Positions 13,182 to 60,493 of a stretch of DNA of 60,954 nucleotides are shown here, piece after piece. Positions within the stretch are counted from its first letter, which is position 1; each line of letters begins with the position of its first letter. Location: positions 1 through 60,954 of the IMG/VR virus record IMGVR_UViG_3300030708_003161; one strand, given 5' to 3'. A program made the translations under genes and the position numbers. This DNA comes from a virus. Lineage: Duplodnaviria; Caudoviricetes. Under the pieces are notes generated by a model. It had not been told where the DNA came from, did no database searches, and saw only the letters and a list, made by a program, of their open reading frames with translations.

Positions 13182-13183
13182 AA

Positions 13184-13333: not shown

Positions 13334-13334
13334 A

Positions 13335-13685: not shown

Positions 13686-13697
13686 ATAAAATTTAAA

Positions 13698-44793: not shown

Positions 44794-46536
44794 TTATCCA
44801 TCGCAGCTTAAACAATTAGGATCCATAGCTGCTGCTGCTATATCCCCTCTCAATACAGACTCGGTCCTCATATAATATAAGGTCTTTATTCCATGTTTCC
44901 ATGCGTCCATATGAACTTTATTAATCCATCTAGGTGTAGCCTCAGAAGGAAAAGCTAGATTAAGTGATACTGATTGATCAATATAATCTTGTCTTATACC
45001 TGCTTGCCTAACTAATTCTAGTTGATTTATTTCTTTAAACGTTTTAAACACGTTTTTGACTGGCTCTCCATCTTCTTTATTGAGCCGTCCTCTTTCGTCA
45101 TAATACCATCCGTTAAGTGCATCGAGTGCTTGAACAGATCCACCATCGGCAAGTATCTTATCCCATGTATCTTTGTTATCAATCCCAAGTTTCTTAAATA
45201 CTTTTTTAAGTTCGTTATTTTTTCTAATAAATGTTCCTTTAGCAGACTGCTCTGTAAATACATTAGCAGCCCAAGGTTCAATACCAGCTGAAACATTACC
45301 TGATAGTTTTGAATTACTAACTGTTGGTGCAATAGATCTTAAATGTGTATTTCTAAATCCTGTACCAACACACCACAGTGGTTCACCATATATTTCAGCA
45401 AGTGCTCTTGAAGCACGCTCAGTTTCAATTTTTATTTTTGAAAATATTTCTCGCGTTTTGAATTGCGCTAATAAACTTTCGAAAGCGATTCCCTTCTTTT
45501 GTAATAGGCTGTGCCACCCAAGGACACCAAGTCCAAGCGCCCTGCCTTTTTCCGCACTGCGTACAGAGTTCTCGAATCCCTTCATATTCTTTGCTCTCTG
45601 AATAAATTCTTCTAGCACACCGTCCAGGAACCATGTTGCGTCGTAAATTAAATTTGTATTCTTCCATTCATCATATTTATCTAAATTAACCGAAGATAAA
45701 CAACAAACAAAACTGTGTGACTCATCTGTATGCAATACTATTTCGCTGCATATATTAGTCATATGTACTTTTAAACTGTTTTTCTTATATGCTTCTGGAT
45801 TAGCTTTGTTTGTATTTCCTTTAAATAAGATATATGGTTCTCCAGTTGCTTTACGCTTTTGGATAAGCTTTGACCATTTGATTCTTGCTTCTTCATCTCC
45901 AAGTTCAAGCTTTCGCATAAACTTATCGCCAACGACAGCACACTGCTGCAGGTTAAGAGATTGTCTATTGACATCTCCTTTAGGTTCTCTAATCTCCAAC
46001 CATTCGAGGAAGTCACTGTGTTCAATATTGATATTAACGCTTGCAGCTCCTCTTCTAACGGAACCTTGATTGGTCGCCAATATAGTTGAGTCGTATATTT
46101 TGCAAAAAGGGACAACGCCGTCAGAAGTTCCATTACCTGTAATTTTAGCACCAGCGGGACGAATCATATTAACTCCGATACCTACACCCCCGCCGTGTTT
46201 TGCAAGTAACATCATTTCTAAATTTTTATTTCCTATATCCTGTATACTATCTGCAACATCAATTCCAAAACAACTTATAGGTAAACCTCTATCTGATCCC
46301 GTGTTAGATAATACAGGTGATGCTAAACACAACCATCCTTTCCATATATAATCAAAAAACTTATCTGCAAGTTCTGGTTTGTATAAACGCTTTGCTACAG
46401 TTTTAGCAACACGCATATATGCATCACGAGGTGACTCACCATTAATTAAATACCCACCTGATATTGTTTTCTTATATATATCCGTATCACCCCACGCAGG
46501 GTAATCTTTATTTTTTTTCCAGTTATTATTCCACAT
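44794..46536 (-). CDS. nrdA: Ribonucleotide reductase class Ia alpha subunit (no ATP cone)
   Basis: SPVLSN, ISCF, GGGVG, TNICSEI, APTVSNS, KTLYY, C-terminal CLSC. Confidence 0.96.
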   Translation of the reverse strand: MWNNNWKKNKDYPAWGDTDIYKKTISGGYLINGESPRDAYMRVAKTVAKRLYKPELADKFFDYIWKGWLCLASPVLSNTGSDRGLPISCFGIDVADSIQDIGNKNLEMMLLAKHGGGVGIGVNMIRPAGAKITGNGTSDGVVPFCKIYDSTILATNQGSVRRGAASVNINIEHSDFLEWLEIREPKGDVNRQSLNLQQCAVVGDKFMRKLELGDEEARIKWSKLIQKRKATGEPYILFKGNTNKANPEAYKKNSLKVHMTNICSEIVLHTDESHSFVCCLSSVNLDKYDEWKNTNLIYDATWFLDGVLEEFIQRAKNMKGFENSVRSAEKGRALGLGVLGWHSLLQKKGIAFESLLAQFKTREIFSKIKIETERASRALAEIYGEPLWCVGTGFRNTHLRSIAPTVSNSKLSGNVSAGIEPWAANVFTEQSAKGTFIRKNNELKKVFKKLGIDNKDTWDKILADGGSVQALDALNGWYYDERGRLNKEDGEPVKNVFKTFKEINQLELVRQAGIRQDYIDQSVSLNLAFPSEATPRWINKVHMDAWKHGIKTLYYMRTESVLRGDIAAAAMDPNCLSCDG

Positions 46537-46882
46537 TTAAATAATATATTAAATATCCTATTGACACATTTAAATTTACTAATACTAAGTTCCATTGTTT
46601 TGCAACCCATACTTGAGGTATAGATAATATTCCCCCTATAATATAAGTTATAATACCTATACCTTCGTATGCTAATAAATATGGTGACATCATAATAAAT
46701 GCTGTACCCATATATCCTAATCTATTTGCAATTCTTTCTTTTGCTGTAAGTCTTCTATCTTGTACTAATAATCGCATAAAAGATCTTTTCCATCTAAACT
46801 CACATCGTATGCATGTTTTTTTACCCGCGTGTTTAAACTTATGATCTTTTTTCTTTTTCTTACAGACATTACAAACTCTCAT
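46526..46882 (-). CDS. Zn-finger plus three-TM membrane protein
   Basis: CNVC...CIRC followed by three hydrophobic helices containing LSIPQVW. Confidence 0.7.
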   Translation of the reverse strand: MRVCNVCKKKKKDHKFKHAGKKTCIRCEFRWKRSFMRLLVQDRRLTAKERIANRLGYMGTAFIMMSPYLLAYEGIGIITYIIGGILSIPQVWVAKQWNLVLVNLNVSIGYLIYYLNVE

Positions 46883-47121
46883 CTATTACATCTATTTCTT
46901 TTAGGTTGAGCATATAGAGTTGGCAATGGTTCAGTATATAATAAATTGTAATTGTAATTATATGCAGGTTCAGTTATTATAATAATTTGTCTTTGATAAT
47001 TATTTAAATTATTTAAATAATATAAATCTTCTAATATTAAATCATTATAATTATAGTTATAATTATATTGTGCATTGCTATAAAAACCTATAGCTAAAAA
47101 TAGTATTAAAATTTTTTTCAT
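46879..47121 (-). CDS. Small secreted Y/N-rich protein
   Basis: Signal peptide MKKILILFLAIGFYSNA|Q, then YNYNYNY low-complexity sequence. Confidence 0.6.
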   Translation of the reverse strand: MKKILILFLAIGFYSNAQYNYNYNYNDLILEDLYYLNNLNNYQRQIIIITEPAYNYNYNLLYTEPLPTLYAQPKRNRCNR

Positions 47122-47133
47122 AATTAATTGTTT

Positions 47134-48102
47134 TTACCAAATATCTTCAAAGTCTTCGCCTTCGTTAGCTTTCGAATAATCAGTCGGCCTAATAGAAAAG
47201 AAATCAGTATGAGTGTGCCCGCCGGTAAGATGGTAGAACCAGTCCAAATCGCTCGCTCCCACTTCGTCATATTCAAAGTACTTCCCGCTGTTTGAGTAAC
47301 CGAGCTCAACAATTTTTTCGTTAAGACGTTTCCTGATAAATTGTTTAAGATCATATGCTTTGAGGTTTTCAATATCTCCTTGTTCAAACATTTTGTCAAT
47401 GTATCTTTCTTCTGCTTTAAGCATTGTCTTTGCTGCTTTAATAACGTGTTCATAACAGTCATCTTGTAATCCTTTAATTTCTTTACACATATGTCTAAAT
47501 AATTGACATCCCATTTTAGAATGTAGAGATTCATCTCTTACACTCCATTTCATCTGTTGGCCAATACCTTTGAGTAAATTACGTAACTGAAAGCTATATA
47601 GCACAGCAAAGGCAGAATATAAAGAAACCCCTTCGGCAAAAGCAGAAAATACAGCCAGTGACCTACCAATACCAACAGGATTATTACCATTATAGCTAAC
47701 AAGATTATCAAACCGTGCAGCTGTTGCAGGTTCGTGTAAAAATGCTTCAAAGTTTTCAAGTCCAAGTGTTTCATTTAAATAAGAATAAGCAACAGCGTGT
47801 ATTGTTTCTTGTGAGCCAAACATCATTGCCATTTGTTGTATTTCGTGTTTAGGAAACCAGCCTACAACTTTTTGTGTCCAATAATCTGATACCGCACATT
47901 CTGTTTGTGCAAATCCTAAAAGGATATTACCAACTAAATTTTTTTCTGATTTAGTTAGCTTTTCATTCCAGTCTTTAACGTCGCTAGACATAGGTATTTC
48001 AGTATGTAACCAAAAAGCTTGAGCTTGTTTAAGCCAACCTTCTGTATAATATTCAGGATATTCAAAAGGTTTATAAGGTATTCTTTCGTCAAATAATCCC
48101 AT
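47134..48102 (-). CDS. nrdB: Ribonucleotide reductase class Ia beta subunit
   Basis: FWLHTE, QETIHAVAYS, AEGVSLYSAF, RDESLH, TDFF. Confidence 0.96.
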   Translation of the reverse strand: MGLFDERIPYKPFEYPEYYTEGWLKQAQAFWLHTEIPMSSDVKDWNEKLTKSEKNLVGNILLGFAQTECAVSDYWTQKVVGWFPKHEIQQMAMMFGSQETIHAVAYSYLNETLGLENFEAFLHEPATAARFDNLVSYNGNNPVGIGRSLAVFSAFAEGVSLYSAFAVLYSFQLRNLLKGIGQQMKWSVRDESLHSKMGCQLFRHMCKEIKGLQDDCYEHVIKAAKTMLKAEERYIDKMFEQGDIENLKAYDLKQFIRKRLNEKIVELGYSNSGKYFEYDEVGASDLDWFYHLTGGHTHTDFFSIRPTDYSKANEGEDFEDIW

Positions 48103-48302
48103 TACTTTTTATCTTCTTTTTCTTTTGTGTTTTCTTTTTTAAGTTCTTCAAGAGCTTCGGCATAGCCAGGTAATTTTTTAGTAACCATCATTGTACCTAC
48201 AGCTAAGTCTTTTAAATTATGTAACTCTTGTACTACTCTATTCATAGAGTTACCAAGTACCTCTATTTTATTGCGCATTTCTATTAGTTTACTTTCCTTC
48301 AT
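48102..48302 (-). CDS. Hypothetical protein
   Basis: 66-aa ORF coupled to nrdB. Confidence 0.6.
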   Translation of the reverse strand: MKESKLIEMRNKIEVLGNSMNRVVQELHNLKDLAVGTMMVTKKLPGYAEALEELKKENTKEKEDKK

Positions 48303-48504
48303 TAAAATATTTATTTAATGTTTTAATTCTATCATCAGCATCAACTAACATTTGTAATGCTTGTTCTGCATTTTTATAATAATCATCTGTTGAATGATCA
48401 CCAATACCTGCAGCTTTATTACTTAATAAATCTAAACTAAGTAATGCTTTTGTTTTATCTGCTTCAGCAGACTTTAATAACATTTCATATAATTGCTTGT
48501 ACAT
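48289..48504 (-). CDS. Conserved small phage protein (AGIGDHS motif)
   Basis: Helical hairpin with a GIGDHS motif. Confidence 0.7.
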   Translation of the reverse strand: MYKQLYEMLLKSAEADKTKALLSLDLLSNKAAGIGDHSTDDYYKNAEQALQMLVDADDRIKTLNKYFNEGK

Positions 48505-48700
48505 CTTTGCTAAGTATTATAGGACTTGCATCCTTGTTGTTTTTAACTTCAATATGTGTTTCTTTAATAGTAATAATAGGATCAATAGATTCCATTATTC
48601 TTCTAATAACTTTACCGTGCTGATCTCTAATTACTTTCTTTTTTGAAAATAAACGTTTATAATTTTTTAAAACGTATTCTTTTATCTTCTCTTCATTCAT
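48485..48700 (-). CDS. Hypothetical protein
   Basis: 71-aa ORF packed in the operon. Confidence 0.55.
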   Translation of the reverse strand: MNEEKIKEYVLKNYKRLFSKKKVIRDQHGKVIRRIMESIDPIITIKETHIEVKNNKDASPIILSKDVQAII

Positions 48701-48836
48701 AATGCATTGTTAAACATAGTTCTACAAAAGGTATATATAATACGTGTTCTATAAATGTTTCCTCAGGATAACTTCGTATGCCTACTAATACACCCGGATA
48801 TAATCCTAAACTAATTTCCCAACCTGCTATTTTCAT
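48693..48836 (-). CDS. Small hypothetical protein (47 aa)
   Basis: MKIAGWEISLGLYPGVLVGIRSYPEETFIEHVLYIPFVELCLTMHYE*; fills a gap. Not in the ORF track. Confidence 0.6.
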   Translation of the reverse strand: MKIAGWEISLGLYPGVLVGIRSYPEETFIEHVLYIPFVELCLTMHYE

Positions 48837-48916
48837 TTAAATAATAATTTAGCATTTTCATATGGAACTTTATTCTTTCAATATAATGATTTTGAAGTGA
48901 AGGTATCTCGATGTCT

Positions 48917-49135
48917 TTAAATTCCGTATCGTTCATGTATGTTTAATATGTCTTTATACCTTATAGGGTTTCTTTTAATTAACTTTTTAATTTCTTTATC
49001 TATTTTACGTCTTCTATACATTATTTCCGCCTCTTTTTTTTTCTTGATTCTTTTATCAAATTTATCGTCAGATCTACTTCTTTCTGATTTTGAGGCTTGT
49101 AAAGTATCTTTCCAATATTGTTTTTCGTAAGCCAT
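48917..49135 (-). CDS. Basic hypothetical protein
   Basis: 72-aa ORF overlapping the 3' end of the endonuclease gene. Confidence 0.5.
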   Translation of the reverse strand: MAYEKQYWKDTLQASKSERSRSDDKFDKRIKKKKEAEIMYRRRKIDKEIKKLIKRNPIRYKDILNIHERYGI

Positions 49136-49482
49136 AGTTTAAATAATTTCCATCTTATAGGAAAAGATTCATTAGGTCTGCCTTTGCATTCTATAATATA
49201 ATCTTTACCAATAAAATCCGGTGTATATTTTATACCTAAAATTTTTTTAATCCCTCTGTTTATATATTCGCCTTTACCATTAGCTTGTTTTTCATAACTT
49301 GTATTAGGAAATTGAAATGAATTTATTAATTCAAATGTTTCGCTTTCATATCCTTCAAACAATTTATTTTTTTTTAAAGCTATATAAGTGTATCTTTCAA
49401 GACCTGATGCAAACTTAATACCGTCATAAGATATTTTTTTAGCCTGCACAGGACCTCGTTTTTTACTTCTTCTTTTTACCAT
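49021..49482 (-). CDS. PD-(D/E)XK endonuclease (T7 endonuclease I / resolvase-like)
   Basis: FASGLE, YTPDF...IIECKG. Confidence 0.8.
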   Translation of the reverse strand: MVKRRSKKRGPVQAKKISYDGIKFASGLERYTYIALKKNKLFEGYESETFELINSFQFPNTSYEKQANGKGEYINRGIKKILGIKYTPDFIGKDYIIECKGRPNESFPIRWKLFKLWLTKNNIGKILYKPQNQKEVDLTINLIKESRKKKRRK

Positions 49483-49483
49483 A

Positions 49484-49759
49484 CTAATATGTAATATCCC
49501 AGTTTTGATCTGTAGTATCTGATGTCCAACTAGACTCAGGGTATTTACTTATTTTTTTATCTTCTTCAATTAATACAGCTCTAATTTTTTCAATATAGTT
49601 AGCAGCATCCATAAGTTCTTCTTGTAGATGATTAAGCCAAGTATCAAGTGATTGTTCATCTTTATCTAAACCAACACCATACTTTTTATAACCTGCTTCA
49701 GCACGCTTTTGAATCTTATCAATTACGCGATTAATTATTTTATCGTTTATTTTACTCAT
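49484..49759 (-). CDS. MazG-superfamily-like small NTP pyrophosphatase
   Basis: R...G..KYG...WLNHLQEELMDAANY. Confidence 0.6.
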   Translation of the reverse strand: MSKINDKIINRVIDKIQKRAEAGYKKYGVGLDKDEQSLDTWLNHLQEELMDAANYIEKIRAVLIEEDKKISKYPESSWTSDTTDQNWDITY

Positions 49760-50513
49760 CTTTTACAAATGTTCCGTTAACCATTTTACCTGTTCTTTTA
49801 GAAATTACATTAAATGATTCATTAATACAATCTTCAATTTTAAACCCTTCTAGCTCTGAAAGATTAGCAAGGACTATTACCATATCACCAATAGCGTCTT
49901 TTATTTCAGCTTTATTTTGCTTTAATAATGCTTGCGCAAGTTCTCCTGCTTCTTCCATTAATTTAACATACTGAGTTTTACTATCACCTTTTTGGTATAG
50001 ATTACGATCTTTAGCCCAGTTTCTTATCTTATTAAATGCTGATGTGCTATTAGGTTTAAATGCTTTAGTAAAAGCTTTATTGTAAATATAACACGTACCC
50101 GGGCCAAACTGGCTTGCATGTACATTAGTTAATATCCAATCAATATAATCTTCATTATTTAATTCAAATATGCCTTCAGGTAATTCTAATGTAATGTCTT
50201 TTAAAAATTCAGCATTAATATCATTAGGTGATATTTTAAATGTTGTTGTTGCCTGCGATGAGCTATGCTTATTCATTTTTTTACGGAATAAATCTTTATA
50301 TAATTTAATATCTGTTTTATATTTAAGTTCTTTTTGTAAATTTCTTTCAGCCTCTGAAGCCTCTACTATATCATCTGTTTCATATAGTATATCGTATTCA
50401 CCAGGTTTATATCCCTGTTCTTCTTCAACGCGTTTCTTAACATTAGTTGTACAACCAATCTTAACACCGGGTATATGGTATATTTTGTATTTACCTTTCT
50501 GTAGTTCTATCAT
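49752..50513 (-). CDS. MazG-like NTP pyrophosphohydrolase with N-terminal GIY-YIG-like domain
   Basis: C-terminal KLMEEAGELA...DAIGD...KRTG; N-terminal KIYHI..KIGCT..KKR. Confidence 0.8.
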   Translation of the reverse strand: MIELQKGKYKIYHIPGVKIGCTTNVKKRVEEEQGYKPGEYDILYETDDIVEASEAERNLQKELKYKTDIKLYKDLFRKKMNKHSSSQATTTFKISPNDINAEFLKDITLELPEGIFELNNEDYIDWILTNVHASQFGPGTCYIYNKAFTKAFKPNSTSAFNKIRNWAKDRNLYQKGDSKTQYVKLMEEAGELAQALLKQNKAEIKDAIGDMVIVLANLSELEGFKIEDCINESFNVISKRTGKMVNGTFVKDE

Positions 50514-51325
50514 GTATTTAATTTAGCTTTAATTGGTGGGTGTGGGTTATAATTTTTTAGTTTAATCATATCTAACTCTGGTAATATTACTTCTTCGTTG
50601 ACAAGAGTAATTCCGCAAGAAGAATCAACTCTAGGCAATTCCCTAAAATCATTATCAAGTTGTTGCTTGGCTTGATCAATATGGTTATTATACAAATGAC
50701 AGTCACCAAAACAACCAATAAGTTCGCCTTTAGCATATTCAAATCCTTCAGCCAACAGCTGAAGTAATAAACCATACATTGCAATATCATAAGGTAGCCC
50801 AAGGAAAACATCAACTGATCGTTGCTGCCACATAAGATTAAGCTTTCCATCATTTATATATACTTGAAAGCCATAGTGGCAAGGTGGCAACACCATATCA
50901 GCCAAATCGTTGGGATTCCATAAGCTTGCCATAATGCGCCGCGAGCTTGGGTTGTTTTTAATTTCGACGAGTACTCTTTTAAGCTGATCAACGCCATTGA
51001 AGTCCCTAAGCTGCTTGCCGTAAACAGGGCCAAGCGTACCATCAGATCTACCTGATCTTTCATAATCAGGATTCCAGTAATTAACGCCGTTTGACTGCAA
51101 GTAATGCATATCAGTACGACCTTGAAGAATCCATAATAGTTCCGTAACTGCATGTTTAAAATATATTTTTTTAGTTGTTAATAATGGAAAGCCAAGTGAC
51201 ATATCATGTTTTATCATTCTACCAAATACAGATCTAGTACCTGTACCTGTTCTATCTTCTTTTGTTTTACCATTATATAATACACCAGCTAATAAGCTTC
51301 TGTATTCATCTTGTATGTTTATCAT
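50510..51325 (-). CDS. thyA: Thymidylate synthase
   Basis: DRTGTGT, FPLLTTKK, LPPCH, QRSVDVFLGLPYD, HLYNNH; start adjusted to MINIQDEY. Confidence 0.96.
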   Translation of the reverse strand: MINIQDEYRSLLAGVLYNGKTKEDRTGTGTRSVFGRMIKHDMSLGFPLLTTKKIYFKHAVTELLWILQGRTDMHYLQSNGVNYWNPDYERSGRSDGTLGPVYGKQLRDFNGVDQLKRVLVEIKNNPSSRRIMASLWNPNDLADMVLPPCHYGFQVYINDGKLNLMWQQRSVDVFLGLPYDIAMYGLLLQLLAEGFEYAKGELIGCFGDCHLYNNHIDQAKQQLDNDFRELPRVDSSCGITLVNEEVILPELDMIKLKNYNPHPPIKAKLNT

Positions 51326-51593
51326 AATAATATTTACACATTTGATAATATTCAGGCCATATATTATGTTTGTTATAAACACTTGGCGAAAAATTTATTT
51401 TTTCACCTTTTTTATATGGCCCAAAAGCAATTGCGATTTTCCATTTACCCGGCTCTTGATGTATACCATAAGGTGATATTCTTATATTGTTATCAATACA
51501 ATATTTTTGCCACGTTTCTTCTTCTAAACTAGAAGTATAGAATGGCATCTTATATGCATCTTTTTTACTTCTACCAGTTAATCCGCTTCCCAT
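51306..51593 (-). CDS. Hypothetical protein
   Basis: 95-aa ORF overlapping both neighbours by a few codons. Confidence 0.65.
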   Translation of the reverse strand: MGSGLTGRSKKDAYKMPFYTSSLEEETWQKYCIDNNIRISPYGIHQEPGKWKIAIAFGPYKKGEKINFSPSVYNKHNIWPEYYQMCKYYYDKHTR

Positions 51594-53287
51594 GGCATTT
51601 TATTATTTATTTGTTGTGTTATTGGTATATAGTTACCACTTATTTTATCCCAAGTAAAATGTGCTTCAGCTTGATTTTCACCTAAATTTTGAAACTTAAC
51701 TTTAAGAACTTTTACTTTTACAGTTTGCTTTTCATAATCTCTATGAACAAGCAATCCGTGATAAGAAGCGTCATACCATTCACCACCACCTTTAATATTA
51801 TACATATTAGGTTCATCAATAGTACCATCTTCTTTCTTATACATTTTAGTAGGATGAGCTACAACAATAACAAGCACATCGTGTTTCTTAGCAAAAGCTT
51901 CAACCCTCGTTAAGTATTCCATAGTAGCATCTGTAATACTCATATTACTAGCACCATTCATCTTAACTTTATTATATGGATCTATTACTAAACACTTAAT
52001 ACCTTTACGTTTTACAAGCTCCGCTCCTTTTTCTAATACAGAATCTAAATCATATCTTTCATTTTCTATAAAGAAAAAGTTATTATTAACTACATCAGTT
52101 ACTTCATTCCATTTAGCAGAACCAATATCTGTTTCTCTTGGCATCCATCCACCTATCTTACGAATAAGTTTATGAGCATGTAAGAATGTTGGTTTGTTTT
52201 CTGGAGAAGCAAATGCTGTTTTCCAGCCATACTTTAAATAATATCCTATAATCATTCTATCTACAAAATCAGATTTACCTGAACTTGGTACACCTGTTAC
52301 TGTAATAAACTGACCTGTATAAGTTGAAAATATATCATCAAAAGGCTCCAACCCGATTTGATAACCGGGTTTGAAACCATCTTGAATAAACTCTTTTAAT
52401 TCATCACTTACATCTGATAATGTTAAAACATTTTCAAGAGGGACGGGACTAGCATTATTAATGATACTAGCAAGCATGTCGCTCCCATTGTGAATAAGAA
52501 ATTCATTAGCGTCTTTGTGATTACCGAAGTCGATCGTATAACACGCTTCCGCTCCGAGTCTTCTAATAAGTTCTTGTTTAAGATTTTCTCCCGCCTCATC
52601 TTGATCAACTGCGATAATGATTTTTTCTTTTGACTCAAAATAATCAATGCAGTTGTCCAAGTAATCAAGGTTAGTGTTATTAATTGTAGCTCCGTTTGGG
52701 ACGCTAACCACTGAATCAATCCCAGCTTCAATAAAAGATAAAGCGTCAATCTCTCCTTCCACAATAACCACATATCTACTGCCAAGAGTAGAATCAATAT
52801 TATAAAATATTTTTTCTGCACCTTTAACAAGTTTAAAATTTTTTCTTCCATCTCTATACTTTATGTTTGTTAATTCATTATTAATAAAGTAATTAAATTG
52901 GATTGTGTTTTCTTTTTTTCCTGTCTGTGGCATATATTCTAATCCCTCAGATACTTTCATTTTATTTAAAGTATCTTCTGATATACCACGCTGTTTAAAC
53001 CATTGAATAACTTTATTACTTAGTTTAGTATTTGTAATAGGTTCAGGTTTAACATATTCTTTATTAGGGTTTTTCCTTTTAAAGGTATGTAACTGAAAAG
53101 TACTATTACAATTATGACAAGTACCAAGACCACGTTCCCAGTCATAAGATGCACATTTCTTTTTCTGGTTAGCAGGTTTTCTGTTAGAAGAGCAAAGAGG
53201 ACAAACGCCCTCTTGCTCACCAACTTTAAGATTGTATTGATTAAATACATCTATATCGAAACCATTAATCTCGATGTCATTTATCAT
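51578..53287 (-). CDS. DNA primase-helicase (Zn-binding, TOPRIM and SF4 helicase domains)
   Basis: CPLC...CHNC, VEGEIDALS, DQDEAG, KDANE, GVPSSGKS, VIDPYN, VAHP. Confidence 0.95.
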   Translation of the reverse strand: MINDIEINGFDIDVFNQYNLKVGEQEGVCPLCSSNRKPANQKKKCASYDWERGLGTCHNCNSTFQLHTFKRKNPNKEYVKPEPITNTKLSNKVIQWFKQRGISEDTLNKMKVSEGLEYMPQTGKKENTIQFNYFINNELTNIKYRDGRKNFKLVKGAEKIFYNIDSTLGSRYVVIVEGEIDALSFIEAGIDSVVSVPNGATINNTNLDYLDNCIDYFESKEKIIIAVDQDEAGENLKQELIRRLGAEACYTIDFGNHKDANEFLIHNGSDMLASIINNASPVPLENVLTLSDVSDELKEFIQDGFKPGYQIGLEPFDDIFSTYTGQFITVTGVPSSGKSDFVDRMIIGYYLKYGWKTAFASPENKPTFLHAHKLIRKIGGWMPRETDIGSAKWNEVTDVVNNNFFFIENERYDLDSVLEKGAELVKRKGIKCLVIDPYNKVKMNGASNMSITDATMEYLTRVEAFAKKHDVLVIVVAHPTKMYKKEDGTIDEPNMYNIKGGGEWYDASYHGLLVHRDYEKQTVKVKVLKVKFQNLGENQAEAHFTWDKISGNYIPITQQINNKMPWEAD

Positions 53288-53288
53288 A

Positions 53289-53600
53289 CTAAAATGGTAA
53301 ATCTGGTTCTTCTTCTTTAGGAGTATTCATTTGCATTGCAGGTTGGCCATCTCTCGGTGGCGGCTCTGGAAATACACCATTACTCCATACTACTTGCACA
53401 TTACCTAAATAAACTTTGTCGACCTTAGCTTCTCTTTCTTCTTGAGATTGAGAAACAATCATTGGGCCTTGATTATTAAACTGGTCAACTTCATCATTAA
53501 CTGTTATAGTAATAGGTAAATACTTACCTTTCTTACCAGTAATAATCTTATCCTTAGGTATTGCAGATAAATTAATACTTCCTTTTACAATACCTGCCAT
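53289..53600 (-). CDS. Single-stranded DNA-binding protein (putative)
   Basis: Short beta-rich protein with an acidic ...EEPDLPF tail, in the replication module. Confidence 0.75.
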   Translation of the reverse strand: MAGIVKGSINLSAIPKDKIITGKKGKYLPITITVNDEVDQFNNQGPMIVSQSQEEREAKVDKVYLGNVQVVWSNGVFPEPPPRDGQPAMQMNTPKEEEPDLPF

Positions 53601-53767
53601 TAGTAACTATTTATTTGAGTGAACATTCTTCTAAGCTGATTCTTGTTAGCGCCTGTAGTTCTTCTTATGTTATCTACAGCTTTAACATGAGACTGATTAG
53701 AATAAAAGTTTTTTGCACTTGTAGTTATACCTGTAACATCACAGGTCATTTTTCTAGTTCTTGCCAT
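53600..53767 (-). CDS. Small hypothetical protein (55 aa)
   Basis: MARTRKMTCDVTGITTSAKNFYSNQSHVKAVDNIRRTTGANKNQLRRMFTQINSY*; TAATG coupled to the SSB gene. Confidence 0.65.
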   Translation of the reverse strand: MARTRKMTCDVTGITTSAKNFYSNQSHVKAVDNIRRTTGANKNQLRRMFTQINSY

Positions 53768-53783
53768 ATTAAATTAATTTAAA

Positions 53784-54515
53784 TTAAAGTGTTTTTGAAA
53801 TATAAAATTGTGTTAAATCAAATTGCTCATCACCAAAAAATTCATTATAAGCTTGAGCCGCTCTCGCAACTTTGTTCTGTCCTGATTGTAAGAACTCCTC
53901 GCTGCAGTCATATAAACCTAATTGGTGTGTTTTTTTATCTATTACTATAAACACTAGCTCATAACCAAATAGCTTAGAATAAATATAAGCTTGGCTGTCA
54001 TAATTAAATTTATATGCACTAGAACGAAATGAATCGATCGATGATGTAGTCTTTAAGTCTACTATTAGTTGTTGTGAGTGGTTAACAATATCTGCTTTAC
54101 CTTTCCACATCACTCCTTCTAATTCGGTGACACCCGGAACCTCATAATCAACTTTACCTTCTTGTATTAAGTCTTTAAATAATTCAACTTCAAGCACTCT
54201 CTCGCGCATATTCTGAATAGAATCTGCTTCATGTTCTAGCAAACATATTTCGCCGCCGGAGAGTTCTTTGTAGACTTTTGTATTTCTTGTTGTTGAACTA
54301 ATAACTTTATACTTATCTAGCTTATGAGGTTCGAGTATACACGTATGAAAATAACCTCCTATTACAAACGCAGTAGAAGGTTCACTAGGCTTCTTAAAAT
54401 CAAGAGGATTATTCAATAGTGCTCTTATGTCACTATTAGAAAGAAACTGTTTACCATAATCACCATAATAGTGTTCATCGGATTTTAGTTTCTTTAATAT
54501 TTCCTCTTTATTCAT
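53784..54515 (-). CDS. PD-(D/E)XK exonuclease, RecE/ExoVIII-like
   Basis: LSNSDI, G.YFH..ILEP, KGKADI...DLKTT, YDSQAYIY. Confidence 0.85.
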   Translation of the reverse strand: MNKEEILKKLKSDEHYYGDYGKQFLSNSDIRALLNNPLDFKKPSEPSTAFVIGGYFHTCILEPHKLDKYKVISSTTRNTKVYKELSGGEICLLEHEADSIQNMRERVLEVELFKDLIQEGKVDYEVPGVTELEGVMWKGKADIVNHSQQLIVDLKTTSSIDSFRSSAYKFNYDSQAYIYSKLFGYELVFIVIDKKTHQLGLYDCSEEFLQSGQNKVARAAQAYNEFFGDEQFDLTQFYISKTL

Positions 54516-55095
54516 TTACAAGCTCAGTCCTAGCTTCTTCAGTTATTGTATATTTATCTTCAAGTGTTTTCATTAATCCACCGTTAGATAAGAACTTCTT
54601 AGCTTGTTCTATATTAGCTTTATTAATTAAAGGTTTTTTAGAACTTGCTATTTTATTTTGTAAATTTTGTACTTTAGATTTAACCGATGTATCTCTACCG
54701 TGCGAATTTGTAGCATCAGCATCAGCGGTATCATCAATTAACAATAGATTACCAAGTGCATACTTTTTACCATATGAGGATGCACTACCAAATCTTTGAG
54801 GCATTTGTTGTCCTTTAGCGTTCAAATCAACACCAACTATCGCTGTAGCTTCAATTGTTTCACCAGATTCAGCATCAACCATAATAGCTGTTGAATGTAT
54901 TATAGGAAAGTCAACACCCATAACAGTTAGATTTTCTTTAACTGTAAAATAAACACCATACTTTTCATTTAATGGTTTTAATGATTCAAGTATATCTTCA
55001 GCTGACCTAAAGTTATACTTACCAAAAGAGTTATAACGAGACTTTTTGGATTTAAATTCATATTGTATTCTACTTAATTTCTCTCGTATATTCAT
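54508..55095 (-). CDS. ERF-family ssDNA annealing protein
   Basis: YNFRSAEDIL, GSASSYGKKYAL..L.IDD..DAD. Confidence 0.88.
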   Translation of the reverse strand: MNIREKLSRIQYEFKSKKSRYNSFGKYNFRSAEDILESLKPLNEKYGVYFTVKENLTVMGVDFPIIHSTAIMVDAESGETIEATAIVGVDLNAKGQQMPQRFGSASSYGKKYALGNLLLIDDTADADATNSHGRDTSVKSKVQNLQNKIASSKKPLINKANIEQAKKFLSNGGLMKTLEDKYTITEEARTELVNE

Positions 55096-55333
55096 AATTA
55101 GTTAATTTATGCCACTTTTTATTTTTCATTTTTAATTGTCTAATTGCATACTTTTTATCTTTATAATACATATTATGATAAAGTGCATCGCCATGCAATT
55201 GGTTATCAATATCTTTTTTATCATCTGTCGATGTATCGATGTTAAAATAATTTAATGCTTCAGATAAATTAGTGGCATCGCCTCTATCTATAGCATCATC
55301 TTCAATGTCGTAAAGTATATGTTTATATTCCAT
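55070..55333 (-). CDS. Hypothetical protein
   Basis: 87-aa ORF downstream of an AT-rich intergenic segment. Confidence 0.55.
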   Translation of the reverse strand: MEYKHILYDIEDDAIDRGDATNLSEALNYFNIDTSTDDKKDIDNQLHGDALYHNMYYKDKKYAIRQLKMKNKKWHKLTNYEYTREIK

Positions 55334-55372
55334 TGTCTTATTATATATTACATAAAAAATTAGTTATGTATA

Positions 55373-56104
55373 CTATTTTTCTAAAAATTTTTCAATAATT
55401 TCTTTTACTTCAGTTTGTTTTAATTTTTGCAAAGCTTTAGCTTTTGTTTTCTTAATCCACACAATTGATTTTTTATATTTTTCAGCTATTCTAGCTAATC
55501 CTACTTTTCTATCAAATGGTTCATCTATACCATAAAACATGCATAACACATCTTTTTCAAATGGTGTTAAAAATATATCCATAACATCATTTAAATGTTC
55601 ATTTAATCTATCATTGCTATAATTAGATATTTCATCAACTACATCCATATAATGCGCATTGAAAAACGATGCAAATGTTCTAGTTAAAAATATATCAATT
55701 TGATAGTTTAAATCATATTTACCCTCGTAGGCAGTTCCGTGAGGCTTTAACTTATAATATGCCTCAGGAATTCTAATAGTGTCTCTATCGTGAGCTATGG
55801 CCCGTTTAATTCCGTTTTTAATATTGATTTTAAGATAATTAATTATAATTCCAGTTCTTTCTTCTTCTGGGGCCGCATTAATTATCTTCCAATCAAGTTT
55901 TGACCAAGCTCTATAAAAACTATAATAGCCTTCCTGTAATAAATCATTTAAGTCTAATATACCTATTCTGTTCCACGCTCTTTCAAACGAATTAGCCAAA
56001 CTTCTTGGCCATTGTATATAAGGCATGTGTTCAGAGTCTATTAGCTTACCACTGTCTATTTCTTTTAAATGAAATTTATATGTTGGGTGGCTATACCACT
56101 TCAT
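55373..56104 (-). CDS. Phage sigma-70-family RNA polymerase sigma factor
   Basis: Region 2 DLLQEG...IKRAI..RDTIRIP; region 4 LTPFEKDVL..FYGI...LARIA...KAKALQKLK. Confidence 0.85.
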   Translation of the reverse strand: MKWYSHPTYKFHLKEIDSGKLIDSEHMPYIQWPRSLANSFERAWNRIGILDLNDLLQEGYYSFYRAWSKLDWKIINAAPEEERTGIIINYLKINIKNGIKRAIAHDRDTIRIPEAYYKLKPHGTAYEGKYDLNYQIDIFLTRTFASFFNAHYMDVVDEISNYSNDRLNEHLNDVMDIFLTPFEKDVLCMFYGIDEPFDRKVGLARIAEKYKKSIVWIKKTKAKALQKLKQTEVKEIIEKFLEK

Positions 56105-56593
56105 TTTCTATTTTTCTTTTTTGATTTTCTAAATTCTTTACATTTTTTTGCTACGTCGAACTTGTTCGTGTATAGCAAATGCATATATATTTTTCTGCTC
56201 ATATTAATCCATTTTATGAATCCAAGTTATTCCTTTATCGTTATACCACAACCATTTATTTTTGTCGTGTTTATCAAAACTTGGTGGAATATCACCAATT
56301 AAATAAGGCTTAAATTCAAACTTTATACCTATTCTAGTTAATTTTAATTTTTTATTTTTCATATTACGTCTTTAAATTCTACTTCGTCAAACCATTCCCA
56401 TTCAGCATCAGGATAACTATTAAGAATTGAATTAATAGTTTCTTCCTGAACTTTATGAGAAACATCGGTATTTATTAAATAAGTTTTATTATTTACTATT
56501 AGTTTACCTAAACTCATTTACCAAATATTAATCCGATTATACATATTAGAATCCATATTAATCCTAGACCTAATATAATTATATTTTCATTTA

Positions 56594-56833
56594 TCATCTT
56601 CCATATTTTTGGTATAGTATAAATACAATAACCTTAAGCATAGTGCCTGCCATAACGCCTACAGCTATTGTTAATTTTATTTGAACAATTGATGCAATAG
56701 TAAAAATTGTCACAGCATCAAATGCAAACATTATCGGTATGAGTATCAATAAGTTATGCTTAAATGTATCGCCTAATAAAGCTACTACATAAGCCGATAA
56801 CCCAAGAAGAAAAGCAATAGATATACTACTCAT
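56594..56833 (-). CDS. Small membrane protein
   Basis: Three hydrophobic helices from MSSISIAF (track ORF 56594..56899, start adjusted). Confidence 0.55.
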   Translation of the reverse strand: MSSISIAFLLGLSAYVVALLGDTFKHNLLILIPIMFAFDAVTIFTIASIVQIKLTIAVGVMAGTMLKVIVFILYQKYGR

Positions 56834-57716
56834 AGTTTCGAATTGTTTTAGCTCTTGGAAATCTGTAAGCTCCAGCTGGAGTTCTTTCAAAGAATTCAAA
56901 TGTTAATACTTTACCAATGTATCTATTTCTAGCTTGCCACATTTCTCTTCTATTTTTAATAGATAATGTAGGCCAAGGTATTTCAACTTCTCTACCGTCT
57001 TCATCAACAGCTATCCACTTACCAAGACCTTTAGCAAACTTACCTCTACCTTCAACATAACCTGTAATAGTTGCTTCAGTATCCGACCAGTCTTTTATTT
57101 TCATTAGATTATTACTTCGTTTAGTTTCATAAGCAGTATTATATCTAAGTATTGAACCTTCATAACCTAAATTTTTAAACTCATTATGATAGTCTTTTAT
57201 TTCTGTATCTGAAGTAACTTCATATGTAGGAACTGTTTTAATTGAACGCCACTTGTAATATTCTTTATAACCTTTAATTCTATTACTTCTTGTAATAAAA
57301 GGAATAAGATTAAACCCATTTTTAGATATGGTTGGAATAAATTGGTCGTAGCAATGAAACTGTAAATACATTGCAGACCAAAATTTATCAGCTTGTGTTG
57401 GTTTTTGCTTTTTAACCATCGATATAATTTTATTAAAATCATTTTTAAATTTATGATTGTACAACTCGCCGTCAAGTATTCTATTAGGATAATCTTTAAA
57501 GAAAGATTGTAGTGTAGTTGTAATATGTTTACAATTTTTAAACGGTTTATGGTTTCTGCTAAACGCACCATCTTTAGTTATGTAGCATCTAACGCCATCT
57601 AATTTTGGTTGTATAAAGTTTTTAATATCGAGTCGCCTGTTCATAGGGTCAAACTCTTTAGCTAACATTACGTTAAAGTTTGTCATATTCTTTTTTAATT
57701 CTTTCATATATTTCAT
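56826..57716 (-). CDS. ATP-dependent DNA ligase
   Basis: QPKLDGVRC, LDGELY, YEGSILR, LMKIK, YRFP; true start may be MTNFNV. Confidence 0.92.
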   Translation of the reverse strand: MKYMKELKKNMTNFNVMLAKEFDPMNRRLDIKNFIQPKLDGVRCYITKDGAFSRNHKPFKNCKHITTTLQSFFKDYPNRILDGELYNHKFKNDFNKIISMVKKQKPTQADKFWSAMYLQFHCYDQFIPTISKNGFNLIPFITRSNRIKGYKEYYKWRSIKTVPTYEVTSDTEIKDYHNEFKNLGYEGSILRYNTAYETKRSNNLMKIKDWSDTEATITGYVEGRGKFAKGLGKWIAVDEDGREVEIPWPTLSIKNRREMWQARNRYIGKVLTFEFFERTPAGAYRFPRAKTIRNYE

Positions 57717-57966
57717 TTAATTCTATTACTAATTCATATTTTTCGTCGGCTAATAACTTAGCTCGTTTAGCTTCTAAATCTAATAGTTGAGCTTTCAACA
57801 TATCTTTTTTAGAAGGATGTTTTATATTTCCAAAACCATCAACTTCAGCTTCAAAAAATTCTTTAGGAGTCATGGGTTTAAAGTTTTCCTGTACTCTAGC
57901 ATCAAACTCTTCTAAAATTTTATCTGCTACTAATTGCGCTAATTTTTCTAAATCTTTAGGAGTCAT
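57673..57966 (-). CDS. Hypothetical protein with C-terminal UVR-like coil
   Basis: ...LADEKYELVIEL motif. Confidence 0.6.
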   Translation of the reverse strand: MTPKDLEKLAQLVADKILEEFDARVQENFKPMTPKEFFEAEVDGFGNIKHPSKKDMLKAQLLDLEAKRAKLLADEKYELVIELNEIYERIKKEYDKL

Positions 57967-58192
57967 GATTTACAATTATAGTGTACATATATTTTAACAA
58001 TTCTTTTTTTCTAGTTAAACATTCAACTTGTTTAGCTATTTCTTCTTTACTAGGCCCAAAGAATGAATCAGGAGTCATATTCTCCCAGTCTTTTATTTTT
58101 TCATCTAAAGGACCTTGCCTACTCATAATGTATATAAGTGCTTGGCCTTTCAAATCGTCGTGGTCAAGCTTTAAGTGTTTTTCTCTTAACAT
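57956..58192 (-). CDS. Hypothetical protein
   Basis: 78-aa ORF packed in the operon. Confidence 0.55.
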   Translation of the reverse strand: MLREKHLKLDHDDLKGQALIYIMSRQGPLDEKIKDWENMTPDSFFGPSKEEIAKQVECLTRKKELLKYMYTIIVNHDS

Positions 58193-58193
58193 A

Positions 58194-58526
58194 TTAATCT
58201 TCTTTTTGTTCTAGCCATTCAATTACTTCTTGCTCAGGCAAATAAGCTTCAGCATCTACATATATTCTTACCTCACTACCATAACCTAAATCGTGACATG
58301 TTTCTTCTATCCTTTCCATAATAGTATCAAATCTTGGTTCGTAATAATATACATCATTTTCCCAATCAATGTTTCTAGCATCATTTGTCATAACATATAA
58401 TGTATAATCATCAGCAGTATACCATTCAGATAATTCTAAATCAGGATTGTGTAAGTCATCACTGATTTTAACAATGCTATCATATTTATCGCTTAAGTAT
58501 TTTTCTAATTCATTTATATAATTCAT
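58194..58526 (-). CDS. Acidic hypothetical protein
   Basis: Start moved to MNYINELEK because the track start lies inside tRNA-Gly. Confidence 0.65.
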   Translation of the reverse strand: MNYINELEKYLSDKYDSIVKISDDLHNPDLELSEWYTADDYTLYVMTNDARNIDWENDVYYYEPRFDTIMERIEETCHDLGYGSEVRIYVDAEAYLPEQEVIEWLEQKED

Positions 58527-58546
58527 TCTATTTAATTTAAAGTTAG

Positions 58547-58619
58547 AGCGAAAAGTGGGAATCGAACCCACAACCTTTAGATTGGAAATCTAATGCTCTG
58601 CCAATTGAGCTATTTTCGC
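58547..58619 (-). tRNA. tRNA-Gly(TCC)
   Basis: GCGAAAA/TTTTCGC acceptor stem, U73, TTAGA-TT-TCC-AA-TCTAA anticodon arm, GTGGG-TTCGATT-CCCAC T arm; CCA not encoded. Confidence 0.95.
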
Positions 58620-58623
58620 ATAA

Positions 58624-58744
58624 GGAGGCGGATGAAACTAGGAATGATATGCAATACACTTCCGTAATGTCTCTCATGTCAACAAGACACACATGCACAA
58701 CTGTTTATATCATCTTTCTACCTTTCGGCTTCCTGACTACCTCC
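58624..58744 (-). ncRNA. Candidate structured ncRNA
   Basis: GGAGGT/GCCTCC closing stem, GCC-GAAA-GGT hairpin, GATGATAT/ATATCATT and TGTCT/AGACA helices; lies between two tRNAs. Confidence 0.55.
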
Positions 58745-58809
58745 AATAGCAGTTGTATGTTCCTGAATGAGATTTAACCATTTGAACAAGAAACTATCAA
58801 TCTGCTTTT

Positions 58810-58883
58810 GTGCGCGGGGTGGACTCGAACCACCGACCTCGAGTTTATGAGACTCGCGAGCTGACCATCTGCTCTACCGCGCA
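58810..58883 (-). tRNA. tRNA with CAT anticodon (Met, atypical initiator-like)
   Basis: TGCGCGG/CCGCGCA acceptor stem, GAGC/GCTC D stem, CGAGT-CT-CAT-AA-ACTCG anticodon arm, GGTGG-TTCGAGT-CCACC T arm. Confidence 0.92.
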
Positions 58884-58973
58884 ATATTATATCGTTTCCA
58901 ATATTCTATTTCAAACAATTCAATTTGTTCTTTTGACATTTTTAATAGAACATTTTTTTTATTTCTTCTTTTT

Positions 58974-59207
58974 TTAGTCAATATATTCTTCATCTGTATC
59001 TTTTAACCATTCTTTTTTAGAATCTAATTCCATAATTTTGATTGTCATATAGTCAATTACATTTTGAACTGAAAACTTTTTAGATTTCATAAGTTTAGGA
59101 TATACTTTTTCTATAGCATATTCAACTGAAAATGTATCAATATGTTTTTCAACATTATTTTTTAAATCTAATATATCTACATAATTTTTTAAGTCTATTT
59201 TATTCAT
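58974..59207 (-). CDS. Hypothetical early protein
   Basis: 77-aa ORF just downstream of the repeated promoter motif. Confidence 0.6.
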   Translation of the reverse strand: MNKIDLKNYVDILDLKNNVEKHIDTFSVEYAIEKVYPKLMKSKKFSVQNVIDYMTIKIMELDSKKEWLKDTDEEYID

Positions 59208-59224
59208 ATTTATTTAATTTTATT

Positions 59225-59257
59225 ATATTATCACATTTATTTTTAATTTGTAACGTA
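59225..59257 (-). promoter_or_regulatory. Putative phage early promoter, copy 1
   Basis: TACGTTACAAA-N12-GTGATAATAT; both boxes and spacing identical to copy 2. Confidence 0.7.
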
Positions 59258-59271
59258 TATGTATAGCAAAT

Positions 59272-59423
59272 TTATTTTCTTCGCCATGATTTATGTACTA
59301 AGTTACTTAACTCTTGCGACACGATTTGAATACTATTACCAGTTTTATGTTCTATTATAGGTACATAACTAATTCTATCCTTACTGGGTGTAGTACTGAA
59401 CCACATCTACAAAATTTATTCAT
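59272..59423 (-). pseudogene. Frameshifted small Zn-finger (DksA/TraR-like) gene
   Basis: MNKFCRCGSVLHPVRIEL in one frame, then YVPIIEHKTGNSIQIVSQE...RRK* in another; 152 nt in total. Confidence 0.5.
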
Positions 59424-59618
59424 ATTATTTTAAATTTAGTTTATAGTATATATTTTTTATGACCGGACCATAATTTTTATAGTCATCGCTATTAATTGCA
59501 TTTTGCAATATATCGGTCAACAATTCTTTTTCTACTTTATTAAACATTTTTTAATTTATTTATTTCATTTATATCTTCAACTTCTAATTCTTTGAACATA
59601 TTTATTATTTCTTTATTA

Positions 59619-59651
59619 ATATTATCACTTTCAATATTAGTTTGTAACGTA
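59619..59651 (-). promoter_or_regulatory. Putative phage early promoter, copy 2
   Basis: TACGTTACAAA-N12-GTGATAATAT. Confidence 0.7.
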
Positions 59652-59671
59652 TTTTTCATAATTATTTTATT

Positions 59672-60324: not shown

Positions 60325-60335
60325 TTTTATTTTAT

Positions 60336-60479: not shown

Positions 60480-60493
60480 AATTTTTAATTTAG

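Follow-up and report, generated by a model that had tools for sequence, protein, structure and literature searches.

The window analysed here, the whole 60,954-bp stretch (~31% GC) of IMG/VR record IMGVR_UViG_3300030708_003161, is the podophage-like genome of a tailed virus (Caudoviricetes). Six of its genes, those for the large terminase (terL), the two ribonucleotide reductase chains (nrdA and nrdB), thymidylate synthase (thyA), a primase-helicase and an ATP-dependent DNA ligase, contain long open reading frames (ORFs) on the same strand as the host gene but out of frame with it. We suggest that at least seven of these nested ORFs (terL_a, terL_b, nrdA_a, nrdA_b, thyA_a, thyA_b and pri_b) are probably overprinted genes maintained by selection, and that an eighth (nrdB_b) partly shares their properties. 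What supports this reading is that relatives of the phage fall into bimodal open and closed states, that the starts and stops of the ORFs are mostly conserved, that stop codons are avoided in a context-specific manner, and that the wobble positions concerned turn over without ever creating a stop.

A first-pass annotation of the same DNA had listed twelve nested same-strand ORFs and proposed that they are real small genes missing from annotation. In a list of nested same-strand ORFs of at least 60 amino acids (aa), all twelve are present where it placed them and all but one lie in the +1 frame, as it had said; the exception is the nrdA ORF at 45425-45667 (+2). Its further observation, that the structural genes hold only one nested same-strand ORF (61 aa, 35208-35393), also stands. 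Two details need amending: the size range of 74-142 codons fits all but one terL ORF, which has 223 codons, and the 136-aa nrdB ORF is not fully nested but extends 10 nt beyond the nrdB stop. The proposal itself survives for seven of the twelve ORFs and in part for nrdB_b, and it fails for four that look like products of chance when compared among relatives (nrdA 45027-45332, nrdB 47550-47774, primase 53020-53250 and ligase 57197-57571).

Length, base composition and the state of relatives

We first consider length. Under a gene-wide null, in which synonymous codons are shuffled within each gene (1000 replicates), the six genes together should yield 1.40 nested +1 ORFs that reach 60 aa, and 10 are observed (Poisson P = 2e-6). 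In nrdB the longest +1 ORF stands out from the shuffled genes at P = 0.013, and in the five other genes it does so at P <= 0.001; +1 stop counts fall below the shuffle mean in every case (z = -3.7 for terL, -3.9 for nrdA, -4.7 for nrdB, -3.4 for thyA, -1.8 for primase and -2.4 for ligase). The other 24 genes of at least 150 aa lie inside this null save for two marginal values, a longest +1 ORF of 44 aa in GroEL (P = 0.050) and the 61-aa ORF at 35208-35393 (P = 0.031), and the +1 stop z-scores of the structural genes scatter near zero, with the portal gene the most extreme at -2.3.

A stricter, local null (2000 replicates) preserves GC content at third codon positions (GC3) by confining the shuffle to blocks of either 30 or 60 codons (P values are given for the two block sizes in this order). 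Here, terL (0.0045/0.0005), nrdA (0.007/0.009), primase (0.001/0) and the thyA codons that lie within ORFs of at least 60 (0.001/0) remain significant, ligase is marginal (0.039/0.017) and nrdB weak (0.25/0.02); GroEL and the portal gene, analysed as controls, are not significant. Considering both shuffles, terL, nrdA, thyA and primase hold nested ORFs that are longer than chance would give, as overprinted genes should be, ligase and nrdB being marginal. The first-pass annotation had named the combination of ORF lengths inside a synonymous permutation null with local GC3 kept and positions that are not conserved as fatal to its proposal; the seven supported ORFs escape it.

Comparisons across relatives covered the six genes, with the first 330 codons of the portal gene as a negative control. 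We kept the best 80 IMG/VR loci per gene out of 171-600 confirmed ones (for ligase, all 4), dropped truncated loci so that only full-length coding sequences remained (68 for terL, 80 for nrdA, 81 for thyA, 81 for nrdB, 79 for primase and 4 for ligase, the window included), aligned these by codon and chose one representative per cluster of 92% nucleotide identity, leaving 45 for terL, 62 for nrdA, 60 for thyA, 71 for nrdB and 55 for primase; all 4 ligase sequences were retained, at a threshold of 99.5%. When +1 stops are mapped over the columns of the supported ORFs, a relative is either stop-free (open) or carries stops at normal density (closed), with few or no intermediates. The boundaries of the ORF are conserved among relatives for the seven supported ORFs and in part for nrdB_b, and not for the four chance-like ORFs, labelled nrdA_c, nrdB_a, pri_a and lig_a below.

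How the open state is kept can be read from the host codons. A +1 stop forms when a codon for L, I or V ends in A and is followed by a codon starting with a purine, or when it ends in G and is followed by A. In open relatives, codons of the form NTA never precede a purine in thyA_a (0/370), thyA_b (0/248), pri_b (0/322) or a further nrdA ORF found in another clade (0/256; see below), and in the open clade over terL columns 100-300 they do so at 14/337 sites compared to 159/245 before a pyrimidine. Overall, open relatives use NTA at 42-65% before pyrimidines, which is the genomic norm (49-65% in thyA_a, thyA_b, pri_b and terL), and at 0-4% before purines. In closed relatives, on the other hand, usage is about equal in the two contexts, at 46-65% for the same four. 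Nor are the critical wobble columns frozen in the open state: most vary among T, C and G, with A entirely absent (0/655 in nrdA_a, 0/451 in pri_b), whereas closed relatives have A in 39-65% of cases at the same columns. In the N-terminal part of the portal gene of these contigs, open runs are not conserved: the longest one covers a median of 51 columns and 98 at most, and relatives do not share it. Judged on these alignments, purifying selection holds the supported frames open over long divergence.

There is, of course, a simpler scenario, also raised by the first-pass annotation: patches of higher GC, acquired by recombination or reflecting local codon usage, might lengthen +1 ORFs passively and without selection. 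The nested ORFs do coincide with such patches, as had been noted, GC3 in the window being higher inside than outside their columns in terL (0.465/0.142), nrdA (0.355/0.203), thyA (0.333/0.154), primase (0.279/0.182) and nrdB (0.400/0.194), and four of twelve ORFs behaving as chance products is in keeping with this scenario. Nevertheless, we regard it as highly improbable. Shuffles that preserve local GC3 are exceeded, stop counts are bimodal, start and stop columns are conserved in most cases, and substitutions at the critical sites exchange T, C and G but never bring in A. Crucially, the avoidance of NTA within the patches depends on the base that follows, and the rise in GC3 is confined to the open state, with no matching rise at the same columns in closed relatives; it is on these two grounds that we reject a passive patch. 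Outside the nested ORFs, the wobble positions of these host genes are as AT-rich as those of structural genes. The GC patch is a footprint of dual coding rather than its cause, and GC3 would be raised because each host wobble base is at the same time the middle base of a codon in the nested gene.

The individual frames

The host genes were identified by profile matches to Pfam and PHROGs. terL (14983-17223, + strand; PHROG 6681, E = 6e-164, residues 26-743) contains two nested +1 ORFs. The longer, terL_a (15308-15979, +; 223 codons), encodes a candidate secreted lipoprotein. It is open in 26 of 45 representatives, including all 23 whose terL identity is at least 73%, and spans 117-237 codons in these. 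The predicted product opens with basic residues, continues with some 12 hydrophobic ones and the motif G-S-C, and is then rich in R, S, T, G and P. In 35 sequences (the window plus 34 database homologues) the N-terminus is kept, with S17 invariant and G16, C18 and A19 present in at least 90%. A classical lipobox has L at position -3 and an invariant Cys about 15-35 residues from the start; by inspection, terL_a offers the K-rich start, the hydrophobic run and G-S-C, with T, I or F at -3.

In the signal region, host codon choice differs by state. Open relatives use codons that yield hydrophobic residues and the Cys in the second frame, while in closed relatives synonymous codons or conservative replacements would put K, E or N at these places. 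Open versus closed contrasts include CGT (19) versus AGA (8), GAT (18) versus GAA (11), and TTC 17/TTT 6 versus TTT 14/TTC 1; the host pair ATG-TGC (Met-Cys), which gives the second-frame Cys, is found in 22 of 25 open and 2 of 16 closed relatives. Database homologues of terL_a comprise 41 unnamed metagenome proteins of 128-241 aa, which means that gene callers have occasionally chosen this frame. The second ORF, terL_b (16052-16291, +; 79 codons, hydrophilic product), is open in 25 of 45 representatives, with NTA before purine at 0/172 in open and 62/132 in closed relatives. Codon entropy, measured at conserved host residues throughout, is lower inside terL_b than outside (0.514 versus 0.649, P = 0.02).

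In thyA (50510-51382, - strand; PF00303, E = 1e-86), two +1 ORFs follow one another such that the TAA of thyA_a is succeeded directly by the ATG of thyA_b. thyA_a (50854-51153, -; 99 codons) has a predicted hydrophobic product with 1-3 transmembrane (TM)-like segments. Among 60 representatives, 38 have no stop in its columns, none has 1-2 and 22 have 3-8. Before pyrimidines, open relatives use NTA at 208/402 sites, and closed relatives use it at 104/227 before purines and 86/190 before pyrimidines. Of the 38 open representatives, 30 retain the ATG column, as against 1 of the 22 closed ones, whose host protein has a different residue there. thyA_b (50587-50853, -; 88 codons), likewise hydrophobic, is stop-free in 20 representatives, with one stop in 2 and 7-14 stops in 38, and 19 of the 20 open representatives share its stop column.

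When the two states are laid on a tree of the thyA protein (built from all protein columns, those under the ORFs included), a single, strongly supported branch separates the 19 representatives that have neither ORF from the rest. On the other side, 38 of 41 carry thyA_a, with a single loss, in a three-member clade. Carriers of thyA_b fall within a 26-member subclade of the thyA_a side, where about three losses are needed. The tree thus requires 2 state changes for thyA_a and 4 for thyA_b, compared to means of 18 and 17 when states are shuffled. The first-pass annotation had also supposed that overprinting on indispensable genes would protect the nested genes from loss; with about three losses of thyA_b and one of thyA_a, this idea does not find obvious support here. 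Directly downstream of thyA, its start overlapping the thyA stop by 4 nt, lies a gene (49752-50513, -) in which a T5orf172 domain is fused to a MazG-like pyrophosphohydrolase; T5orf172 has its kin among the GIY-YIG nucleases, and homing activity might thus come into question at this site next to thyA.

The primase-helicase gene (51578-53287, -; Pfam Toprim and DnaB_C/AAA_25) holds pri_b (52423-52851, -; 142 codons, +1), whose predicted product is hydrophobic with 1-3 TM-like segments. Among the 55 representatives, 18 have it open, each with the ATG, and these are exactly the ones whose identity reaches 73%; in the remaining 37 its columns hold 5-19 stops. Of its 29 critical columns, 25 are polymorphic in the open state, and closed relatives have A as the third base 452 times out of 851. 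pri_a (53020-53250, -; 76 codons, +1) is probably a chance ORF, its stop counts being unimodal (0 in 9 representatives, 1 in 10, 2 in 15, 3 in 20 and 4 in 1). Downstream of the pri_b region, primase columns 322-400 lack any +1 stop over ~80 columns in 5 of 55 representatives (L371, L373, L374, L379 and L388). These belong to a group with 66-68% identity and the histogram is not clearly bimodal; judging by the alignment, the stretch may be another lineage-specific nested ORF.

nrdA (44794-46536, -; class I ribonucleotide reductase alpha, PF02867 and PF00317) carries three ORFs. nrdA_a (+1) was originally placed at 45771-46151 (126 aa) with a GTG start at 46151; the conserved start is an ATG at 46133, so that the ORF runs over 45771-46133 (-) and has 120 codons. 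It is open in 53 of 62 representatives, all 53 of which have the ATG, and ends at either of two columns (42 and 11 representatives). All 13 columns where L, I or V precedes a purine are polymorphic, with 655 third bases that are T, C or G and none that is A; in closed relatives, A makes up 57 of 134. Synonymous constraint is mild (codon entropy, P = 0.02). AlphaFold2 predicts four helices, with a predicted local distance difference test score (pLDDT) of 69 and a predicted template modelling score of 0.60; Foldseek searches with this model returned only generic helical bundles, the best E being 0.3 in PDB and 0.21 in BFVD.

nrdA_b (45425-45667, -; 80 codons, +2) would encode a basic, Cys-containing protein. 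Over its columns 298-374, 15 of the 62 representatives have no stop, none has 1-2 and 47 have 3-13, and an ATG is present in 16 of 16 open representatives. The same stretch is used differently in another nrdA sub-lineage (its loci include L126-L133, L137, L141-L146 and L150-L159), where a +1 ORF of 149-174 codons with a strongly hydrophobic C-terminus occupies columns 294-449, corresponding to 45100-45670 in the window. The two are mutually exclusive: nrdA_b is found in 15 representatives, the other ORF in 17, both in 0 and neither in 30. The third ORF, nrdA_c (45027-45332, -; 101 codons, +1), is probably due to chance or very recent: it is open in 1 of 62 representatives, namely the window, and its stop histogram is unimodal, which is why we read it as chance.

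Four antisense ORFs of 87-142 aa also lie opposite nrdA (45022-46351, +), within or near the shuffle null. The long ones, such as the 142-aa ORF at 45173-45601 (+), are inside it (P = 0.13), while one 89-aa frame reaches P = 0.006. We considered these as selected genes and rejected the idea; they are not conserved in relatives and we read them as passive.

The remaining cases are weaker. In nrdB (47134-48102, -; ribonucleotide reductase small chain, PF00268), nrdB_b (47124-47534, -; 136 codons, +1) is partly supported. Over its last ~90 columns, 29 of 71 representatives have no stop, 6 have 1-2 and 36 have at least 3, and NTA before purine stands at 0/364 in open and 160/511 in closed relatives. 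Its start column varies, and it passes the end of nrdB in all 29 open relatives. nrdB_a (47550-47774, -; 74 codons, +1) is probably chance, again on account of a unimodal histogram across the 71 representatives (0 stops in 15, 1 in 17, 2 in 15, 3 in 12 and onward). In the ligase gene (56826-57716, -; PF01068 and PF14743), lig_a (57197-57571, -; 124 codons, +1) is not conserved. We read it as chance because it is interrupted in 3 of 3 full-length relatives (83-90% aa identity), a very small set.

Putative products and their translation

Why should +1 frames be favoured? Stop density per codon in these genes is 0.025-0.065 in the +1 frame compared to 0.12-0.20 in the +2 frame, and a +1 stop requires T at the second position of the host codon followed by a purine, so that it can always be removed synonymously; we attribute the bias to this. 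Initiation is equally amenable to analysis. The regions upstream of annotated genes are A/T-rich and G/C-poor and carry no Shine-Dalgarno signal, in line with initiation in Bacteroidota as described in PMC6847099. We built a start-context profile from 49 annotated ATG genes and scored candidates against 876 internal out-of-frame ATGs. terL_a (97th percentile), terL_b (99th) and thyA_a (97th) are in the top 3%, and three such contexts among seven ORFs is more than expected (binomial P = 9e-4); pri_b follows at the 87th percentile and nrdA_a at the 52nd, an ordinary context like that of nrdA_b. The start contexts of unsupported ORFs, such as pri_a, are poor. The position of the thyA_b ATG right against the thyA_a stop suggests translational coupling. 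The nested products would then be made from the mRNA of the host gene by internal, Shine-Dalgarno-independent initiation at A/U-rich starts, with translation of thyA_b coupled to the thyA_a stop.

Alternatively, programmed ribosomal frameshifting from the host gene might produce trans-frame fusions instead of independent small proteins. The lack of a favourable initiation context in nrdA_a, nrdA_b and nrdB_b and the unconserved start of nrdB_b would be compatible with this. We nonetheless think it very unlikely, for three reasons: in most open relatives the conserved ATG is preceded by a stop a few codons upstream; terL_a begins with a putative signal peptide, a feature that is functional only at an N-terminus; and the thyA_b ATG adjoins the thyA_a stop.

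On our preferred reading, independent small proteins are made, and terL_a would be a lipoprotein-like secreted protein, thyA_a, thyA_b, pri_b and nrdB_b small hydrophobic and probably membrane proteins, and nrdA_a, nrdA_b and terL_b small soluble proteins. Translated in the relevant frame, open relatives have more TM-like segments than closed ones for thyA_a (2.37 versus 0.91), thyA_b (2.0 versus 1.08) and the +1 ORF of the other nrdA clade (1.88 versus 0.63). As to what the products do, our guess is an accessory role at the cell envelope or in host takeover, for example superinfection exclusion or lysis control. None of the ten products scanned, which include all but nrdB_a and pri_a, contains a homing endonuclease domain (HNH, GIY-YIG or LAGLIDADG; Pfam below the curated cut-off, PHROGs E >= 0.066).

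How strongly is the protein sequence itself selected? Selection on the second-frame sequences appears weak overall and is clearest in terL_a. Across the overlaps, the only changes clearly excluded from host synonymous variation are those that create a stop, along with a local constraint at the putative terL_a signal peptide. Several observations tell against functional overprinted genes and need to be kept in mind. Codon entropy is not lower inside than outside the ORF for terL_a, thyA_a and thyA_b and only mildly so for nrdA_a and terL_b (P = 0.02 each). At matched host identity, second-frame identity is higher in open-open than in closed-closed pairs by mostly no more than 0.01-0.07; the gap reaches 0.10-0.16 in a few bins and is slightly negative in two. 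In shuffles that preserve the absence of stops, the hydrophobic layout is only modestly non-random, thyA_b and nrdA_a giving no signal and the terL_a signal region a median P of 0.08, with 8 of 25 sequences at P <= 0.05. TM-like content is equal in open and closed relatives for pri_b and nrdB_b. AlphaFold2 finds no confident fold for terL_a (mean pLDDT 36), and the same ten products, scanned at E <= 1, have no meaningful match to any Pfam or PHROG family. nrdA_a, nrdA_b and nrdB_b lack a favourable start context, that of nrdB_b being poor. Furthermore, relatives are not independent samples, so that Fisher-type P values are inflated. Finally, the ORFs are absent from the cultured relatives we checked: nrdA of Flavobacterium phage immuto contains 53 stops in the +1 frame and lacks any ORF as long as 50 codons, terL of elemo has only a 52-codon ORF elsewhere in the gene, and terL of MW202828 has none.

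Imagine, then, that the frames are translated and kept open but that selection acts on translation as such, through ribosome traffic, coupling or protection of the mRNA, and that the peptides have no sequence-dependent function. Strong selection against nonsense combined with weak or absent missense constraint in thyA_a, thyA_b and terL_a (taken as a whole) speaks for this model. We consider it unlikely, if less so than frameshifting. A regulatory ORF would not need 80-237 codons plus a fixed stop, and the RNA in question is already translated in the host frame. The signal-peptide and Cys codon contrasts in terL_a, the shift in wobble composition in the open state, and the extra TM-like segments of open thyA_a, thyA_b and the nrdA ORF of the other clade all point to a product.

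Returning to overprinted genes with functional products, the comparisons establish, for the sequences sampled, that the nested ORFs are accessory: some sub-lineages have them and others do not, and in thyA gains and losses are ordered in a nested fashion. Together, the thyA tree and the alternative nrdA ORFs suggest that such ORFs are accessory, heritable and repeatedly invented. By a narrow margin, we favour a broader picture in which an abundant, uncultured marine clade with probable hosts among the Flavobacteriia has a hidden layer of accessory genes, seven or eight at the least, in alternative frames of its most conserved enzyme genes, whose products go mainly to the envelope and which were born stepwise and de novo (thyA_a first, with thyA_b appended at its stop), with sub-lineages inventing different ORFs in nrdA and core genes serving as nurseries.

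Genomic setting, known systems and meaning

The window is organised into a + strand block (1800-44546), with GroEL, a GroES-like gene, tail genes, holin, endolysin, terL, portal, capsid-related proteins and very large virion proteins, and a - strand block (44794-60869), with nrdA, nrdB, thyA, primase-helicase, an ERF recombinase, a PDDEXK nuclease, a sigma-like protein and the ligase. By terL, the nearest cultured relatives are Flavobacterium and Cellulophaga podophages at 46% aa identity. Hundreds of IMG/VR contigs are much closer than these cultured phages. Part of the terL region also occurs in public RNA runs, in the form of assembled contigs, which do not reveal starts or frames. A Megablast search of the nrdA-nrdB region against a phage collection gave no match.

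The lysis cassette comprises a holin (12771-13181, +) and an endolysin or peptidase (13335-13685, +), and two small genes come next, one for a protein with three TM segments (13698-13958, +) and one for a soluble protein (13955-14173, +). Although the presumed bacterial host is Gram-negative, nothing in this cassette (12771-14173) was recognised as a spanin pair. We considered terL_a as the missing o-spanin and rejected it, as it sits in terL and no type-II membrane i-spanin partner was recognised after the endolysin.

Some further features deserve mention. GroEL (1800-3395, +) and a GroES-like co-chaperonin are both phage-encoded (1800-3639, +), and the 198-aa protein encoded just upstream of the terminase genes (14173-14769, +) is a further match to a 'co-chaperonin GroES' PHROG. 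The structural block closes with one ORF of 2394 aa (37362-44546, +). On the other strand, a 243-aa protein (55373-56104, -) has a weak match to sigma-70 region 4 (E = 1e-4, under the Pfam cut-off) and may, on that basis, be a phage sigma-like or transcription factor.

Similar arrangements are known from other phages. In lambda, Rz1 (the o-spanin) lies wholly within the i-spanin gene Rz in the +1 frame, and terL_a is likewise a +1, lipoprotein-like frame nested in another gene. However, its host gene encodes a terminase rather than a spanin partner, its mature part has ~200 residues rather than a few dozen, and neither an i-spanin partner nor a lysis role is evident, holin and endolysin lying 1.3-2.5 kb upstream without a recognised spanin.

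The Sgl products of single-stranded RNA phages are hydrophobic. As described in PMC7693330, sgl genes are small, share little or no similarity with one another, are mostly embedded in the replicase gene, sometimes number more than one per genome and arise readily de novo. Several products here are similarly small, hydrophobic, encoded within replication genes, and gained or lost between close relatives. Unlike these RNA phages, which have 3-4 genes and face severe size limits, this is a 61-kb double-stranded DNA phage that already has a holin and an endolysin.

Overprinting more generally is exemplified by gene E within gene D of phiX174; a +1-frame bias is usual, and overprinted products are often disordered or membrane-active. 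The term denotes the origin of a new protein from an alternative frame of an existing gene (PMC8227390, PMC3494269). What differs from the small viruses is that at least seven cases occur in one double-stranded DNA tailed phage, that they are concentrated in conserved enzyme genes and that their presence varies among relatives. In T7, out-of-frame ORFs are predicted within the primase-helicase gene (4.1 and 4.2) and the terminase gene (19.2 and 19.3). Their proposal reportedly relied solely on start signals, and they are not known to have a function. The phage described here also has out-of-frame ORFs in its primase-helicase and large terminase genes but, unlike T7, with comparative evidence of selection. 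In literature listings and abstracts, a coverage that leaves subscription journals outside, we found no account of nested ORFs for phages of this group. Such genes escape phage annotation, since gene callers do not allow long ORFs inside others.

Several nested ORFs coexist here in a double-stranded DNA phage of ordinary size that is under no pressure for space. For each of them, natural 'knock-out' and 'knock-in' states can be found among hundreds of environmental relatives. The purine-versus-pyrimidine context test of stop-forming synonymous codons makes for a simple scan of other phage clades. If our reading is true, the coding capacity and accessory gene content of phages are underestimated, and synonymous sites in terL, nrdA and thyA, commonly used as markers and in rate estimates, are not neutral. 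The clade would also offer a tractable set of genes born de novo, whose gains and losses are dated and whose competing solutions share a single locus.

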